A stretch of DNA of 64,000 bases from an uncultured Phycisphaeraceae bacterium (lineage in GTDB: Bacteria; Planctomycetota; Phycisphaerae; Phycisphaerales; Phycisphaeraceae). Under the pieces are notes generated by a model. That model was not told where the DNA came from, ran no database searches, and worked only from the letters and a program-made list of their open reading frames with translations. Below, one piece after another: positions 35,053-40,311 of the stretch. Position numbers and translations under genes: made by a program. Where the stretch lies: the NCBI GenBank assembly GCA_964502445.1, contig CAZCWM010000004.1, forward strand, positions 127,977-191,976, written 5' to 3'. Numbering within the stretch: the stretch's first letter is position 1; every line of letters starts with the position of its first letter.

Positions 35053-36348
35053 TCACTCCCGTGCAGGCGTGGCATTGATGAGCACGTCGGCCTGTTCGAG
35101 CACTTTGCGGATGGCGCGGGCGACGGCACGGGCGGCGTCGCGGCCGTTGGGCGCCCGCAGCGGCGATCCCAGACAGAAGTGGGTGTCGCAGTGTCGTTGG
35201 GCCACCGGGAACTTCGCGGGGTCGTAGTCGACCTGCCCGGCCTGAGGCAGGGACCACGGGACGCCTTGGCCGTAGGCGTTCCTGGCCTTGAAGACGGTCA
35301 TGTCGGGCAGGATGAATCGCTGCCAGACCATGGCTCGGGCGCCCTCGGCGTTCATGGCTTTGAGCAGCTTGTCACGCAGAGCGACCGGCGGGCCGTCATA
35401 ACCCCAGGCCGTCGGATCGATGCGCAAGGTAGCGTTGTACCAGTTGTGCATGTGGCCTTGCGGCTCGGTGGGCAGGATCAGGCCGGGCGCGCCTTCGAGT
35501 TCCGCAAACAGGGCGGCTGCATTCTCGCGCTGCCGGGCGATGTAGCCATCAAGCTTGGTGAGCTGGGCCCGGGCGAAGGCGGCGCCCAGGTCGTCGTTGC
35601 GGTACATCCAGCCCAGGGCGTAGGCGTGATAGTCCCGGCTCTGGGCCGGGGTCGCGGTTTCGCCGAACGACCAGATCTGCAGGGCCTTGAGGTGCAGATC
35701 GTCGTCATCGGTGACGAACAGGCCGCCCTCGCCGCCGCACAGGCACTTGTTCTGGTTGAGGCTGAAGGCGGCGCAATGCCCGAAGGTGCCGACCTTGCGC
35801 CCTTTGAACGTCGCGCCGTGACTTTGACAGGCATCCTCGATCACCATCAGCTTGTGGCGACGGGCGATATCCAGCACGACGTCCATATTCACGGCGAGCC
35901 CATGCAGGTGTACGACGATGATGGCCCTGGTCTGAGGCGTGATGGCCGCTTCGATCTTCGTCACGTCGATGTTCATCGTCTCCCAGTCGATATCGACGAA
36001 GACGGGGATGGCGTTGTGGTGCAGGGCGCAGGTCGCGGAACTGGACCATGTGTAGGCGGTGACCAGCACGTGATCGCCAGCCCCGCAGCCGACGGCGGCG
36101 ACGGCCATGTGCAATGCAGCCGTACCGGAGTTGGTGGCGATGCAGCGGCGGTTGCCGTTCCACGCGGCGAATTCGTCCTGCAGCTTGACGCAGTTGGGCC
36201 CGAACGTGTGGGCGTCACTCTCGAGCGATGCCATCACGTAGCGCCGGTCGATCTCGCCGATCGGCGGCCAGGGCTGCAGCAGGTCGTCGGGCACGGCCTT
36301 GGGCCCGCCGAGAATCGCCAGGGTGTCGGTTGCGTGGGGCATGGGCAT
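35053..36348 (-). CDS. DegT/DnrJ/EryC1/StrS family PLP-dependent aminotransferase
   Basis: LAILGGPKAVP..., EFAAWNGNRRCIATNSGTAALHMAV..., AGDHVLVTAYTWSSSATCALHHNAIPVFVDID..., IVVHLHG and FSLNQNKCLCGGEGG (Lys in the expected Schiff-base context). A GGAGA RBS precedes ATG 36348. Confidence 0.85.
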   Translation of the reverse strand: MPMPHATDTLAILGGPKAVPDDLLQPWPPIGEIDRRYVMASLESDAHTFGPNCVKLQDEFAAWNGNRRCIATNSGTAALHMAVAAVGCGAGDHVLVTAYTWSSSATCALHHNAIPVFVDIDWETMNIDVTKIEAAITPQTRAIIVVHLHGLAVNMDVVLDIARRHKLMVIEDACQSHGATFKGRKVGTFGHCAAFSLNQNKCLCGGEGGLFVTDDDDLHLKALQIWSFGETATPAQSRDYHAYALGWMYRNDDLGAAFARAQLTKLDGYIARQRENAAALFAELEGAPGLILPTEPQGHMHNWYNATLRIDPTAWGYDGPPVALRDKLLKAMNAEGARAMVWQRFILPDMTVFKARNAYGQGVPWSLPQAGQVDYDPAKFPVAQRHCDTHFCLGSPLRAPNGRDAARAVARAIRKVLEQADVLINATPARE

Positions 36349-36500
36349 GTCTCCAGTGGTGGCGCCCCATCATCATCATCGCCGCGCCGCCCCCGGCAAG
36401 GGCGCAAGGTTGTCCGCAATGTGTGATGTCTTGCACTGCCGCCCCGTCGGCGCGGTGAGTCAGTCGATGCCGTGAACTTCCATCCGCAACCAAGCCGGCG

Positions 36501-39434
36501 TCACTGGCGATCAAACAGCGTGTTGTCGTCCGGACCGAAATAGCCGACACCCAGGTCGCGGGACTGCTGCTCGGTGGGGCCATAGATGCTGGCGCGGGTG
36601 AAGGTCATGGTGTGGGCGTCGACGTGGGTGTCGAGGTAGATGGCATTGGCACGGCCTGTGTGGCGGAAGTGGATCGACGGCGTGGAGGGGCCGCCCCAGG
36701 TCCAGAGGGGCGGTTCGATGAACGAGTACTCGGCGGCGATCACTTGCGTGCCGTCGGGCTGGGCGATGGCGGCGTCGGCGAACATGAGTGTGCCGGCCGC
36801 GTCGCGGAAAGCGTCGACCCGGGCGCCCAGCGCGTCGGGATTGTCGAAGTCGGTGGGATTGTCACGCCCGACGTACTCGTTGTTGTAGCCATAGCCGCCG
36901 TTGCCGGCCTCGAAGCCCCGGCCGTCGGGCGAGTAGGCGGGGCACTGCTGGATCGAACCTTCCTTGCCCAGGTACGGGGTGAGCGGGCCTTCACGGTGGT
37001 TGAAGGGTTCGCCGCCGCCGTCGCGCGAGCCGTGCCAACGATGGCGGTTTTGCATGAAGTTGGCCGCGCCGGGGACGTAGCGCTGGTCGTGATCGGCGGC
37101 GAAGGCGACGTTGGCGTGGGCCAGTTCACGCAGGTTGGCGGCGCAGCCGGCGACATCGGCGGAGCTGCGGGCCGAGGCGAGGACGGGAAACAGCAGCCCC
37201 ACCAGCACGCCCATGATGGCGACGACCACCAGCAGTTCGATGAGGGTGAAGGCGGTCGAAGTGGGTTGAAGGTTCAAGGCTGAAATTCGCAATGAAGGTT
37301 GAGGCGGGGGCACGCGTCGGCGTCGACGGGTGAAGGTGGCGAGGCCGAGGGCGAGCATCACAGCCGTCGTCGGCTCGGGCAGGGCGGGGGTCGTTCGCAC
37401 CGTCAGGTCATCCATGGCGAAGAACCCCGGCGTGTTCATTCCCCAGTCGCCCACGTCGCTGGACGCGAGGCTGAAACTCAGACTGCTCACCTCGCCCAGG
37501 GGTTGAAGGTCCACCCACGTCCACGCATCAATGAGGTAGTCGCTCGCGCCAGGGCCGGTAAAATCCGCCAGATAGAACGGCACGCTGCCGATCTCCGTCC
37601 CGCTCGCGTCGTGGCCACGAATCGTCAACAGGAACCAGTCGGGCGCCGTCCCATCCTCGCCGCCGAACCGCTTGGCAAACCCGTCCCCGTGCAGCATGGA
37701 CAGGTAGGCGTAGGTCGTGTTGGTGAAATAGGCGCCTTCAACGACGGTGGGTGCGGGCAGGATGACGCGGGCGTGGCCGCTGACGTCGGCCACGGCGTAC
37801 CGCGACGAGCCGTGGACGCCGCCGCCGGTGAAGGCGCTGAACGAATTGCCGAAACCGGCCGTGGTGGTGTCCGTGGCGGCCGAGACGGCGAAGCCCTGCC
37901 AGTAGAACCAGTCGCCGTCGGAGAAGACTTCGAAATCCACGCCGCGGCTGCTCCAGGTTTCGACCAGCCCCACGCCGCCGATGCCGTCGACCGGGTACTG
38001 GCCGCTGTAGGCGATCGCGGCGCCCAGGTCGACGTCTTCGAAGTCGACGATGACGCTGGTGTGAGCGAGGGGGGCCACAAGCGTGAGAGCCAGCGAGACA
38101 GGCAGGGCCCCGAGAGCGGCGTGAACCGCTGCCATGGAGCGGCGGCTCGAACCGCTCGTGATGCGTGGAGGGGCGAACCCGCCGCGCCGGCGCCTGAGGC
38201 CGAATGTGATTGCGAGCAGCATGACCGACAGGGCGCTCGCGGGCTCGGGGATGACGGCGCCGGAGCCGGCCCCCGCGCCGGTGAGCAGGGCGACGAACCG
38301 ATTGATGTCCTGCGTATTCACACTGCCGGAGTTGTCGGGATCGATGGCCGCGATATCGATGCCGGGGTAGGCCGCGGCATAGCCGGCGAAGTTGGTGAGG
38401 GCGAGAACGAAGGCATTGATGTCCTGCGTGTCGACATGTCCGGAGGCGTCAAAGTCGCCCGGCGGTGTATGCGTCTGATGCAGCACCGCCACCGCGTCCA
38501 GATCGAAGCCGCCGCTGTTGAACGACGTGGTGAAAGGATCGTTGACGATGTGGCCGAGGCCGTCGTAGGTAGCGTATGCGGGATCGATGCTGCCGACGAC
38601 GTCGATAAGGCGCACATGCGTGATCGCACGCAGATCCAGCACGGCCACGCCAGCCTCATCGGCCGTCGCCTGCAGGTCGCTCAGGTCGAACGGCGTCCCG
38701 AATCCCTGGCGGTACTTGCCCGCCAGGTTGTGCAAGTTGGTCGGATCGAGCGTCGACCACGGGCCGATCTGCGTGGTTGTCGGCGTCAGGCTCACGGCTG
38801 GGAAGCGGAAAAAGTCATGGCCATTGGACGAGACTTCAACGAAGGCCAGTTCGAGGAACGTATCGGAGAAGGCGTTTTCAAAGACCGCCAGATCGGCGCC
38901 TGGGCCGTTGGCGATCGGATGGGGAAAGGTGAGCGTGATGCTTCCGCCATCGCCGAGGCTGACGACGCCGAAGACATCGCCCTGGGCTGGCCCGAGGGCA
39001 TTGGCCCCGGAGCCGAAGGATGCAAGGGCGGCGAAGGGATCGGTGATGTCGATCGACCCGCGCGTGAGAGCGGCGACGGCATCGGCCCAATTGACGATGC
39101 TTGCGTCACCAATGGCGATGGCGGTGGAGCCTTCGAGCCCCGCGGCCGGGGCGTATGGGCCGGCCTGAGCCATGGCGGTGAAGACGCTGAGCAGGATGAT
39201 TCCTATCACGGCGAGACCGCTGCGCACGTGGCCCGTCACGGATCGCTTCAGACGCTGGTCACGCCTCGCGACCGTCAGGCAGCGGTGCCGTTCTCGTACG
39301 GTGGAATGCGGGCCGCGCACCGACGCTCGCGGCTTGTGGCGGGCACACGCCGGCTGCGTGGTCGTCTCTGCCAAATGTGCGGATGCTCCAGGAGATTCGA
39401 TGAGCGATGGGAGGGTCGATAGGAACCGATGCAC
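36501..39434 (-). CDS. Tri-modular secreted/surface protein: [signal peptide - beta-rich domain - 2 dockerin-like repeats - PEP-CTERM] + [signal peptide - DUF4465-like domain - PEP-CTERM] + [prepilin-type N-terminal motif - DUF1559 (H-X9-D) domain]
   Basis: A single uninterrupted frame of 977 codons. GTG 39434 lies 6 nt after a strong AAGGAG RBS (39441-39446). Module 1 covers residues ~66-417, module 2 residues 434-707 and module 3 residues ~720-977. See the sub-features and findings. There is no SD-like sequence before the internal Met434 or before module 3. Confidence 0.75.
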   Translation of the reverse strand: MHRFLSTLPSLIESPGASAHLAETTTQPACARHKPRASVRGPHSTVRERHRCLTVARRDQRLKRSVTGHVRSGLAVIGIILLSVFTAMAQAGPYAPAAGLEGSTAIAIGDASIVNWADAVAALTRGSIDITDPFAALASFGSGANALGPAQGDVFGVVSLGDGGSITLTFPHPIANGPGADLAVFENAFSDTFLELAFVEVSSNGHDFFRFPAVSLTPTTTQIGPWSTLDPTNLHNLAGKYRQGFGTPFDLSDLQATADEAGVAVLDLRAITHVRLIDVVGSIDPAYATYDGLGHIVNDPFTTSFNSGGFDLDAVAVLHQTHTPPGDFDASGHVDTQDINAFVLALTNFAGYAAAYPGIDIAAIDPDNSGSVNTQDINRFVALLTGAGAGSGAVIPEPASALSVMLLAITFGLRRRRGGFAPPRITSGSSRRSMAAVHAALGALPVSLALTLVAPLAHTSVIVDFEDVDLGAAIAYSGQYPVDGIGGVGLVETWSSRGVDFEVFSDGDWFYWQGFAVSAATDTTTAGFGNSFSAFTGGGVHGSSRYAVADVSGHARVILPAPTVVEGAYFTNTTYAYLSMLHGDGFAKRFGGEDGTAPDWFLLTIRGHDASGTEIGSVPFYLADFTGPGASDYLIDAWTWVDLQPLGEVSSLSFSLASSDVGDWGMNTPGFFAMDDLTVRTTPALPEPTTAVMLALGLATFTRRRRRVPPPQPSLRISALNLQPTSTAFTLIELLVVVAIMGVLVGLLFPVLASARSSADVAGCAANLRELAHANVAFAADHDQRYVPGAANFMQNRHRWHGSRDGGGEPFNHREGPLTPYLGKEGSIQQCPAYSPDGRGFEAGNGGYGYNNEYVGRDNPTDFDNPDALGARVDAFRDAAGTLMFADAAIAQPDGTQVIAAEYSFIEPPLWTWGGPSTPSIHFRHTGRANAIYLDTHVDAHTMTFTRASIYGPTEQQSRDLGVGYFGPDDNTLFDRQ
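37185..37253 (-). other. Prepilin-type N-terminal cleavage/methylation motif (AFTLIELLVVVAIMGVLVGLLFP) located internally
   Basis: Residues 728-750. It is followed by DUF1559-like sequence and a C-terminal FRHTGRANAIYLDTHVD (H-X9-D) motif typical of planctomycetal pseudopilin-like proteins. Confidence 0.8.
37314..37382 (-). other. Internal PEP-CTERM sorting signal 2 (LPEPTTAVMLALGLATFTRRRRR), not followed by an in-frame stop codon
   Basis: Residues 685-707. It follows a DUF4465-like domain (WFYWQGFAVSAATDTTTAGFGNSFSAFTGGGVHGSSRYAV...FYLADF...WTWVDLQPLG...SSDVGDWGMNTPGFFAMDDL). Confidence 0.8.
38184..38252 (-). other. Internal PEP-CTERM sorting signal 1 (IPEPASALSVMLLAITFGLRRRR), not followed by a stop codon
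   Basis: A PEP tripeptide, a hydrophobic helix and an Arg cluster at residues 395-417 of the 977-aa ORF. It is preceded by dockerin-like repeats GDFDASGHVDTQDINAFVLAL and DPDNSGSVNTQDINRFVALL. No stop occurs in any of the three forward frames for more than 200 nt downstream. Confidence 0.8.
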
Positions 39435-39667
39435 GATGGTCTCCTTGCCCTGATTCGCGCAGGGCGGCCCCGAGGCGACGATGCAATCGTGTCGGCGCGT
39501 TGGGGTTCGAAGACGGGCCGTGGCGGCCGATCGGACAATCGTGTGGCCGGGCCAGGTGATCGCCGTCGTCGGCCGGTGGGTCCGCTTCGGGTCACGGGGG
39601 CATCGGGGCTGCTTCGGGGTGCAACAGGCCGAACCCTCGTGGTCCCGTAACGCGAGGACACACGCGG

Positions 39668-39989
39668 GTCCGACAGGCAGGTCTTCCGGCTCTGAGCTTC
39701 ACGGTCCGGGGCCTTCCCATCCAGCCGCACGCTGCATCCAGCGTGGGCCAGACAGTGGCGAAGATTCCGGGCCGCCTATCCCTTCGGCAGGCCGCCTCGC
39801 TCGTTCAATGCGAGGGCATGAATGCCAAGGGCCGCTCATCACGGCGGCGCGTCCGCGGAGGCTTTTCCGGGCTCGGTCGATGCCGCTGCACCCCTTTGAA
39901 AGGCAGGCAGGCGGTCGGCCTCGTCCGGGTACCTCACTTCCCTTTTCACCCGTCCGGGCCGATTCGGCTCGGGCGGGCACCTGTCGGAC
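39668..39989 (-). promoter_or_regulatory. Cobalamin (AdoCbl) riboswitch-like leader, long variant
   Basis: On the minus strand there is a 10-bp closing helix, GTCCGACAGG (39989..39980) with CCTGTCGGAC (39677..39668). Elements in order are GGTGCC, AAAAGGGAAG, GCCACTGT, a hairpin, GGGAAGGC, and the B12-box-like AGCCGGAAGACCTGCC immediately 5' of the 3' P1 strand. That box is one mismatch from the E. coli btuB box as I recall it. It lies about 230 nt upstream of the GTG 39434 start. Confidence 0.65.
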
Positions 39990-40001
39990 GTCTGAAGGCC
40001 G

Positions 40002-40030
40002 ACAATATCGGGCCCGCCCACAGGGGTCAA
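40002..40030 (-). promoter_or_regulatory. Sigma-70-like promoter for the riboswitch-led transcript
   Basis: Minus strand TTGACC (40030..40025) - 17 nt - TATTGT (40007..40002), ending 12 nt before the riboswitch P1 helix. Confidence 0.35.
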
Positions 40031-40121
40031 GCCCCGGCGAGCCGACGAGGTCTGGGGCGTGAGTAACCGACTCAAGCGGCTTGCATGATCGGTCGATCGC
40101 GGTACATTATTGGGCCGCTAC

Positions 40122-40193
40122 GCGGGTGTAGCTCAGTGGTAGAGCGTCACGTTGCCAACGTGAATGTCGTGGGTTCGAGCCCCATCACCCGCT
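40122..40193 (+). tRNA. tRNA-Gly (anticodon GCC)
   Basis: GCGGGTGTAGCTCAGTGGTAGAGC, anticodon stem TCACG/CGTGA, loop TTGCCAA, T arm GTGGGTTCGAGCCCCAT, acceptor CACCCGC, discriminator U. CCA is not encoded. Confidence 0.95.
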
Positions 40194-40311
40194 TTGGACC
40201 TTGATCCGACCTGGATCGGGTCCGGTTCAAGTTAATTTTGCTGACGCCCCGGTTGCCGCCGGGGCGTTGTCGTTGGTGGCGGCGGTGACGCAGGCGATTA
40301 CGGGTCGACCG

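Follow-up and report, generated by a model that had tools for sequence, protein, structure and literature searches.

Can a sorting signal that normally closes a secreted protein lie inside a reading frame, with further exported proteins encoded behind it? This question is raised by an open reading frame (ORF) of 977 codons with a GTG start, found at 36501..39434 (-) in the ORF listing of a 64-kb stretch of DNA from an uncultured Phycisphaeraceae bacterium (assembly GCA_964502445.1, contig CAZCWM010000004.1, positions 127,977 to 191,976; hereafter the window, meaning this whole stretch). The ORF holds three complete exported modules in one frame, with all export and sorting signals intact. A first-pass annotation had placed in it two PEP-CTERM signals, a helix starting at M434 and a prepilin-like AFTLIELL, and the length of 977 aa and all these positions proved exact. 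The ORF is an in-frame fusion of the three neighbouring genes of a conserved cassette, probably controlled by a cobalamin riboswitch and devoted to surface B12 capture. Its parts (PEP-CTERM, Sec signal peptide, prepilin motif, DUF4465, riboswitch) are of known kinds, but their arrangement is not. With moderate confidence, based on conserved motifs at the predicted cleavage sites, we favour a genuine fusion whose product would be processed into three envelope proteins.

PEP-CTERM signal 1 covers residues 395-417 (IPEPASALSVMLLAITFGLRRRR; 38184..38252 (-)) and consists of IPEP, a helix and RRRR; signal 2, at residues 685-707 (LPEPTTAVMLALGLATFTRRRRR; 37314..37382 (-)), has LPEP, a helix and RRRRR. 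Scored as isolated 40-mers, sites 1 and 2 reach 23.6 and 26.0 bits with TIGR02595 (cutoff 16), in agreement with their initial assignment, and the whole protein also yields two TIGR02595 stretches; PF07589 gives 15.9 bits on the ORF, below its cutoff of 20.7. PEP-CTERM domains are defined at the extreme C-terminus, 87% of members having fewer than 10 residues after the domain, with a median of 3 (Haft 2006, PMC1569441). Here the protein continues for 560 residues beyond site 1 and for 270 beyond site 2, so that neither signal is at the extreme C-terminus; in the alignment, signal 2 falls on the PEP-CTERM that is truly C-terminal in all relatives.

Each signal is followed by a short basic segment and a new hydrophobic helix, an arrangement that we call a hairpin. 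After signal 1 comes a predicted cytoplasmic loop of 16 residues (residues 418-433, GGFAPPRITSGSSRRS; 38136..38183 (-)), then, from M434, an internal signal-peptide-like re-insertion helix (residues 434-460, MAAVHAALGALPVSLALTLVAPLAHTS; 38055..38135 (-); hydrophobic peak 1.96) leading into module 2 (residues 461-684; 37383..38054 (-)). After signal 2, a linker of 20 residues that includes a run of five C and a TTG (residues 708-727, VPPPQPSLRISALNLQPTST; 37254..37313 (-)) leads to the prepilin cleavage and methylation motif recognised by PF07963 and TIGR02532 (A728↓F729-TLIE733-LLVVVAIMGVLVGLL, with AFTLIELL from residue 728; 37188..37253 (-)) and to the globular, pseudopilin-like part of module 3 (36504..37187 (-)). 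The alternating topology deduced earlier from these elements is self-consistent: acidic residues are absent from both loops, which carry 7 and 6 Arg/Lys. In particular, residues 414-437 hold 7 Arg/Lys and no Asp/Glu, while the length and sequence of loop 1 vary among relatives.

Is the first junction a true fusion? The minus-strand frame of the ORF is open from 39701 to 36503 in the stop-codon map. On the same strand, successive stops lie at 38320 and 37627 in the +1 frame and at 38451 and 37740 in the +2 frame, so that both alternative frames are open from 38319 to 37741 across junction 1. The first-pass annotation had noted more than 200 nt without a stop in the three frames; the map extends this to about 580 nt and agrees that, with no stop in any frame, no indel can recreate a gene boundary there. 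Moreover, the same design, in which the first module (mod1) precedes DUF4465 and which includes a pair of dockerin-like repeats, is found in P0001 (64% identity) and in P0028, P0035 and P0141 (43-45%), and P0083 and P0049 also have mod1 fused to DUF4465. The P0028 protein is present on 6 contigs, three of them shown to come from three different Sequence Read Archive (SRA) runs, and the P0001 contigs come from 2 runs. In locus L004, junction 1 reads ...LRRW SAQVLATLLLSASMATA↓GP and offers module 2 no possible start codon; module 2 can thus be made there only as part of the fusion, which speaks for a functional fused state. Junction 1 is therefore genuine and not an artefact, and its presence in relatives of 43-65% identity makes the mod1-DUF4465 fusion an old one. 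When the loci of relatives were compared for separate or fused genes, as had been proposed, junction 1 was found fused, but module 3 is separate in the nearest of them.

Fusions of this kind are recurrent and independent. Of the 120 best ORF homologs, 29 contain an internal PEP-CTERM about 290-330 residues before the C-terminus. Behind it, 18 have a signal-like helix and DUF4465, which is the order of the window, and 6 have a prepilin motif and module 3; the remaining 5 show the reversed order DUF4465, PEP-CTERM, signal peptide, mod1. A HMMER search of 1.84 billion cluster representatives, of which the best 150 were classified, gave at least 21 distinct 50%-identity clusters with hairpin fusions: 11 with mod1 before DUF4465, 6 with DUF4465 before mod1 and 4 with mod1 before module 3. 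With the window, four junction types are represented (mod1 to DUF4465, DUF4465 to mod1, mod1 to pilin and DUF4465 to pilin), and further fusions of PEP-CTERM to prepilin occur in P0222, P0237 and P0238. A synthetic consensus peptide of the PEP-CTERM to prepilin junction, used as a query, matched short DUF1559 fragments only, none with an upstream PEP-CTERM.

The relatives also suggest how such fusions arise. In P0001 and P0028 (loci L001 and L004), the codon after the Arg cluster of the internal PEP-CTERM is TGG (Trp), at the position where a TGA stop would be expected, which is consistent with an origin by TGA to TGG stop loss. Reassignment of a stop codon as the source of this Trp is ruled out, the codons of P0001 and P0028 being TGG and not TGA. 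At L008, L020 and L026 the mod1 gene ends in ...RRRRAH followed by a stop, and the pilin gene continues in the same frame past that single stop. At L091 (48% identical) DUF4465 ends in ...RRRHANKR and a stop, and 54 nt further MKRIHPQHG↓FTLIELL begins in the same frame, a single in-frame stop thus separating DUF4465 from module 3. Judged by their sequences, such gene pairs are one substitution away from a fusion. At the 67% GC of the window genome, few stops occur in any frame, and translation can readily run on into the following gene. We suppose that fusions would arise through stop-codon loss or frameshift between tightly packed genes, and would persist since the retained signals resolve the precursor.

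What do the fused forms retain? All detected hairpin junctions keep the PEP, the hydrophobic helix and the basic cluster, which are also the features by which they were detected. The internal PEP-CTERMs of P0083, P0056, P0049, P0066 and P0030 pass TIGR02595. An AXA-type motif lies 0-5 residues before DUF4465 in all 18 of the 18 relatives with mod1 before DUF4465. In the reverse-order fusions (6 of 6), Ala at -1 and a small residue at -3 stand directly before the GP[YF] of mod1. Signal peptides at the N-terminus of unfused mod1 proteins have their site at this very position, and those of all homologs end in AXA↓GP[YF]. The maintenance of PEP and of the -3/-1 sites fits a precursor that is cut, as a simple tether would need neither.

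According to the model that we propose, a product of about 910 aa would be inserted by Sec as a polytopic precursor of alternating topology. Behind the signal peptide, mod1 would be outside, PEP-CTERM helix 1 would act as a stop-transfer sequence and the first Arg-rich loop would stay in the cytoplasm; helix 2 would then re-initiate export and place DUF4465 outside, followed by PEP-CTERM helix 2, the second Arg-rich loop, the pilin helix and, outside again, module 3. Signal peptidase I would cleave at AQA↓G92 and near AHT↓S461, exosortase would strip both PEP-CTERM anchors and prepilin peptidase would cleave A728↓F729 on the cytoplasmic face. The outcome would be mod1, a B12 binder and a pilin-like protein at 1:1:1, plus small membrane remnants.

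Junction 2 has a different history. The run of five C at 37306-37310, the +1-frame TGA at 37276 and the TTG at 37277..37275 that overlaps it are as described in the first-pass annotation, which had warned that a sequencing error in this run could explain the junction. The nearest relatives encode module 3 separately (gap of 45 nt at L001, overlaps of 22 nt at L003 and 7 nt at L004), and neither a second fusion of DUF4465 to pilin nor a second three-part fusion turned up in the best 150 representatives or in the 120 best homologs. Over residues 697-720 the G+C content at third codon positions (GC3) is 0.57-0.63, versus 0.8-0.97 elsewhere and 0.73-0.87 across junction 1. From this composition, the linker looks like recently recruited non-coding or out-of-frame sequence and the DUF4465-pilin fusion looks recent. 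Since the nearest relatives keep module 3 separate, the three-part precursor is a lineage-specific and recent extension of the older two-part fusion.

Four contigs, one of 20-50 kb and three of 0.2-1 Mb, carry a call for exactly this 977-aa product; one of them, L087 (GCA_013328895.1), matches the window at 100% identity along 13,075 nt, junction 2 included. The warning of a sequencing error is weakened by these four contigs and not eliminated, and junction 2 is probably not such an error. One apparent case of a separate module 3 gene in a close relative (P0137, 236 aa, 95% identical to module 3) was discarded as uninformative, its contig being chimeric: in L090 (GCA_013328915.1, 863 nt) AT-rich foreign DNA is joined at 37282, and the remainder differs from 36663-37282 by 2 gaps and 2 mismatches. 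This misjoin bears on the trust to be placed in junction 2, as it shows that assemblies of the source project contain misjoins. The homopolymer at 37305-37313 (-) reads GUG-CCC-CCG, and a +1 shift on it stops at the TGA overlapping TTG 37277. CCC-C is a classic context for +1 slippage of tRNA-Pro; that programmed or leaky frameshifting at CCC-CCG gives both fused and separate products is pure speculation.

Several observations weigh against processing of the precursor, and some of them suit another explanation, in which the fusion is real, its product stays uncleaved or only partly cleaved, and the helices form a two-helix inner-membrane tether for periplasmic domains. Direct mod1/DUF4465 fusions without membrane segments are the commonest architecture (53 junctions among the best 150 representatives, to which the metagenome scan adds 64 loci without hairpin). 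Being so common, they indicate that mod1 and DUF4465 can work linked and need no separation, covalent linkage thus being no obstacle to function. With TIGR02595, the internal PEP-CTERMs of P0001 and P0028 stay under the cutoff of 16, and that of P0035 scores 14.9; such sub-threshold signals in the closest fused relatives could reflect relaxed constraint. Non-terminal PEP-CTERM matches were described as more variable, and it was suggested that the few exceptions to the terminal position ‘may represent non-functional examples’ (Haft 2006, PMC1569441). The internal putative signal peptidase I site of the window, LAHT↓S, is a poor equivalent of AXA and the least canonical of the family. Junction 2, for its part, is unique to the window organism and intergenic-like in composition, and no exosortase or prepilin peptidase gene was seen among the about 30 neighbouring genes scanned in the window. 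We know of no precedent for a prepilin peptidase acting on a substrate with an exported leader of about 660 residues. Against a tether, the PEP tripeptide is kept at every hairpin junction examined, and the small -3/-1 residues fall exactly where the N-terminal signal peptides of unfused orthologs have theirs. In addition, BtuJ-type B12 capture is extracellular in characterised systems (PMC13616437), and an inner-membrane tether would prevent it. On balance we regard an uncleaved or partly cleaved tether as unlikely.

The novelty of junction 2 could also mean that it is a recent one-base insertion with little function, the working forms being the ancestral two-module protein and a separately made pilin-like protein, and the three-part precursor a by-product. 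Module 3 might then be translated from an internal start (TTG 37277, TTG 37295 or GTG 37313); alternatively, occasional +1 slippage at CCC-CCG would bring back the TGA stop at 37276. The short leader of the separate module 3 in the nearest relatives, the lower GC3 of the linker and the lack of a second DUF4465-pilin fusion among the best 150 representatives all suit this explanation; moreover, removing one C yields the TTGA stop/start overlap and an ortholog-like leader, MNLQPTSTA↓FTLIELL. But many other lineages have fixed PEP-CTERM to prepilin fusions of this design (P0030, P0034, P0038, P0066, P0025, P0029, P0222, P0237, P0238), so the design is tolerated; module 3 is fully intact, with a GC3 of 0.8-0.93, and no sign of an internal start or of slippage was seen. 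An inert insertion at junction 2 thus appears rather improbable to us. That three ordinary genes were joined by a sequencing or assembly artefact is more doubtful by far: a one-base change in the C5 homopolymer does separate modules 2 and 3, the source metagenome assemblies do include chimeric contigs such as L090, and the four contigs carrying the 977-aa product possibly do not stem from independent read sets, but junction 1 is irreparable by any indel and conserved in distant relatives from unrelated samples, and the product recurs on four contigs, one of them (L087) without any difference over the aligned length. We hold such an artefact to be very improbable. A genuine fusion, processed into three envelope proteins, remains the reading that we favour.

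What, then, would the three proteins be? For module 2, the initial DUF4465 call is borne out by PF14717 over residues 508-677 (172 bits, cutoff 25, E 2.1e-50), and the profile of the homolog alignment A1 matches the solved structures 9hmu (E 1.2e-42) and 9fct (E 1.1e-40), placing this module with the BtuJ-like B12-binding beta-jellyrolls. Members of the DUF4465 family bind B12 (PMC13398666, PMC13616437). From the family and the riboswitch context, we infer that module 2 is a BtuJ-type binder of cobalamin.

The first module follows an N-terminal Sec signal peptide, placed by homolog alignment and its hydrophobic segment (residues 66-91, ...LAVIGIILLSVFTAMAQA↓GPYAP; 39162..39239 (-)). It is a conserved domain (residues 92 to about 330; 38445..39161 (-)) with no family match in Pfam, NCBIfam or PDB sequences. 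An AlphaFold2 model built from an alignment of 40 sequences gives a confident beta-sandwich (predicted local distance difference test score, pLDDT, 92.2). Its best PDB folds are B12-binding lipoproteins of Bacteroides thetaiotaomicron (8blw_B and 7biz_B), which are weak matches (E about 6e-4, template modelling score, TM, 0.41-0.44). Homologs of mod1 number in the hundreds and occur, among loci L007-L170, in Planctomycetota, Verrucomicrobiota, Bacteroidota, Cloacimonadota and Armatimonadota, where mod1 nearly always adjoins or is fused to DUF4465 and frequently lies 3' of a cobalamin riboswitch. We propose mod1 as a candidate new B12-related domain family, the fold matches of the model serving as a lead. 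Between mod1 and PEP-CTERM signal 1, reading of the sequence suggests a dockerin-like pair of Ca-binding repeats (DFDASGHVDTQDINAF... / DPDNSGSVNTQDINRF..., residues 327-384; 38283..38456 (-)). Within the 16 rows of alignment A1 these repeats are common only to P0001, P0028 and P0035, and P0141 has them too; PF00404 (Dockerin_1) was recorded weakly on the orthologs P0028 and P0035.

Module 3 bears the prepilin motif that had been recognised by eye: scored alone, it reaches 21.6 bits with TIGR02532 (cutoff 16.3) and 21.5 with PF07963 (cutoff 21.2), its helix matches pilin N-terminal helices in the PDB, and the Glu at +5 (E733) is present. Position -1 is Ala and not Gly, as also in the orthologs L003 and L004. 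The assignment of the globular part to a DUF1559/H-X9-D domain held only in part. The H925-X9-D935 motif is there, followed in the window by T instead of G, but the models PF07596 and TIGR04294 have no match at E<=1 in module 3 of the window, L001 or L003. The verrucomicrobial ortholog L008 alone exceeds both cutoffs, with 26.3 bits for PF07596 (cutoff 23.3, profile positions 1-31) and 26.5 for TIGR04294 (cutoff 19), and module 3 can be viewed as a distant relative of the H-X9-DG/DUF1559 proteins. Its orthologs are stand-alone genes of 254-258 aa downstream of the cassette, with leaders of 6-9 residues such as MRTHPQPG↓FTLIEML, MLRRKA↓MTLMELL and MLSRRA↓FTLLELL.

To follow the cassette across genomes, one genome per species was searched with the homolog alignment, and stop-to-stop ORFs were labelled by three purpose-built module hidden Markov models (HMMs). 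Separate genes for the three modules lie side by side in Chthoniobacter, Rariglobus, an Akkermansia-like metagenome-assembled genome (MAG), Opitutaceae, Sedimentisphaerales and Chthonomonas (separate-gene cassettes at L009, L010, L028, L032, L071, L022 and L091), and many Verrucomicrobiota have pairs of mod1 and module 3 genes. In Bacteroidota, mod1 and DUF4465 are neighbours or form one directly joined protein ending in a type IX secretion system (T9SS) sorting domain. In metagenomes of the Joint Genome Institute (JGI), 56 of 80 related loci have DUF4465 directly joined to mod1, then a separate module 3 gene. The three-module cassette is thus old and occurs in every possible fusion state.

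Two further forms of direct fusion were noticed. Pirellulaceae and relatives (P0124, P0002-P0027) encode proteins of 1,100-2,600 aa with one mod1, 2-5 tandem DUF4465 and no membrane segments, and these giants resemble arrays of multiple B12-binding domains. At L093-L169 (JGI sediment and groundwater), the linker of direct DUF4465-mod1 fusions often reads ...PASS[FY]A-GPYTE. This motif may be a fossil signal-peptide c-region (AXA↓GPY), in which case direct fusions may descend from hairpin fusions.

Upstream of the ORF, a probable cobalamin riboswitch aptamer (RF00174) with large insertions lies at 39659..39999 (-). Its B12 box (AGCCGGAAGACCUGCC) is intact, and it scores 30.5 bits (gathering score 31.5; local E 4.6e-6), with fitting strand and 5' position. 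The insertions are of about 150 nt; a default scan misses the aptamer, which stays one bit under the Rfam threshold. At the same position, RF00174 is above threshold in six orthologous loci (L017, 100.6 bits; L071, 73.2; L004, 58.2; L055, 47.9; L003, 40.1; L028, 34.1). Directly upstream of the riboswitch, TTGACC-17-TATTGT at 40002..40030 (-) is a sigma-70-like promoter candidate by consensus match, and the sole promoter-like match within 36200-40250. A divergent tRNA-Gly(GCC) gene is found at 40122-40193 (+), about 90 nt upstream of the promoter-like site.

The mechanical ORF probably includes part of this leader. Codons 1-65 (39240..39434 (-)) have no signal-peptide character, and homologs open directly with the signal peptide; since homologs begin there, these first 65 or so codons are probably untranslated 5' leader RNA and not protein. 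In-frame GTGs near the probable start are found at 39239, 39227 and 39209, the true start being probably GTG 39239 or 39227 and the product about 908-912 aa. An exact look-up found no recorded product starting at residues 66, 70, 76 or 88. From aptamer to probable start codon the distance is about 420 nt, unusually long for an expression platform. No Shine-Dalgarno (SD)-like sequence precedes this probable start either; the same lack before the internal modules is therefore uninformative.

The neighbouring genes are of the housekeeping type (RecG, UvrD, RF2, sulfatase, histidine kinase, PhoH, MqnE-like, DegT-like). BtuB, BtuG and BtuH were not seen near the window locus, nor was a canonical CTTTGAC frameshift site near the window RF2 gene.

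Should the proposed processing take place, the sorting signal of an exosortase substrate would not need to be C-terminal, prepilin peptidase would tolerate a very large membrane-embedded leader, and general sorting peptidases could resolve bacterial secretory polyproteins, a logic otherwise linked to enveloped viruses. More tentatively, we would see in polyproteins delimited by sorting signals a possible selectable route of the PVC group (Planctomycetes, Verrucomicrobia, Chlamydiae) to stoichiometric sets of envelope proteins, of which the hairpin fusions of the B12 cassette might be the first natural examples. These proteins also provide natural substrates to study the specificity of exosortases, biochemically obscure enzymes, with pairs of fused and unfused orthologs as built-in controls. 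Whatever the mechanism, there is a widespread, riboswitch-controlled cassette of mod1, DUF4465 and pilin-like protein in Planctomycetota and Verrucomicrobiota, whose mod1-DUF4465 pair reaches Bacteroidota, and mod1 becomes a candidate player in B12 scavenging. For annotation, internal PEP-CTERM matches should not be dropped automatically as frameshift or noise.

How does this locus compare with known systems? The literature search agrees with the first-pass annotation that exosortase substrates organised as polyproteins are undescribed: it turned up no description of internal or tandem PEP-CTERMs, of polyproteins cut by exosortase or of a link between PEP-CTERM and prepilins or DUF1559, and the DUF4465 papers make no mention of hairpin-fusion architectures. 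With the BtuJ/DUF4465 btu loci of Bacteroides (PMC13398666, PMC13616437), the window shares the DUF4465 jellyroll and probably the cobalamin riboswitch, but it has a PEP-CTERM anchor in place of a lipoprotein or T9SS signal, and mod1 and a pilin-like protein as partners. Its likeness to PEP-CTERM/exosortase sorting lies in the PEP, the short hydrophobic helix, the Arg cluster, the scores above cutoff and the N-terminal signal peptide, whereas its signals lie 560 and 270 residues from the C-terminus, each followed by a new export signal and a folded module. As in type IV prepilin processing, there is a [G/A]↓FTLIELL motif with Glu at +5 and a hydrophobic helix; yet in the window, as in some ten further lineages, the place of the ‘leader’ is taken by an entire upstream exported protein with its PEP-CTERM and Arg loop.

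Secretory polyproteins are known elsewhere. In flaviviruses, signal and stop-transfer helices alternate along the polyprotein, and host signal peptidase cuts it there; in Bradyrhizobium, the FbcH precursor of cytochrome b-c1 carries an internal signal peptide. The window precursor resembles them as a single translation product with alternating topogenic helices, which general-purpose membrane peptidases would resolve. It differs in that its separators include putative exosortase and prepilin peptidase sites, its cargo consists of envelope proteins and its cleavage is predicted. Finally, as in Rosetta-stone operon fusions, the parts are separate neighbours elsewhere, in unfused forms one stop codon away. 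Rosetta-stone fusions of exported proteins, however, lose their internal signals, as the direct mod1-DUF4465 fusions did, whereas the hairpin fusions have kept them, repeatedly and over a long divergence.

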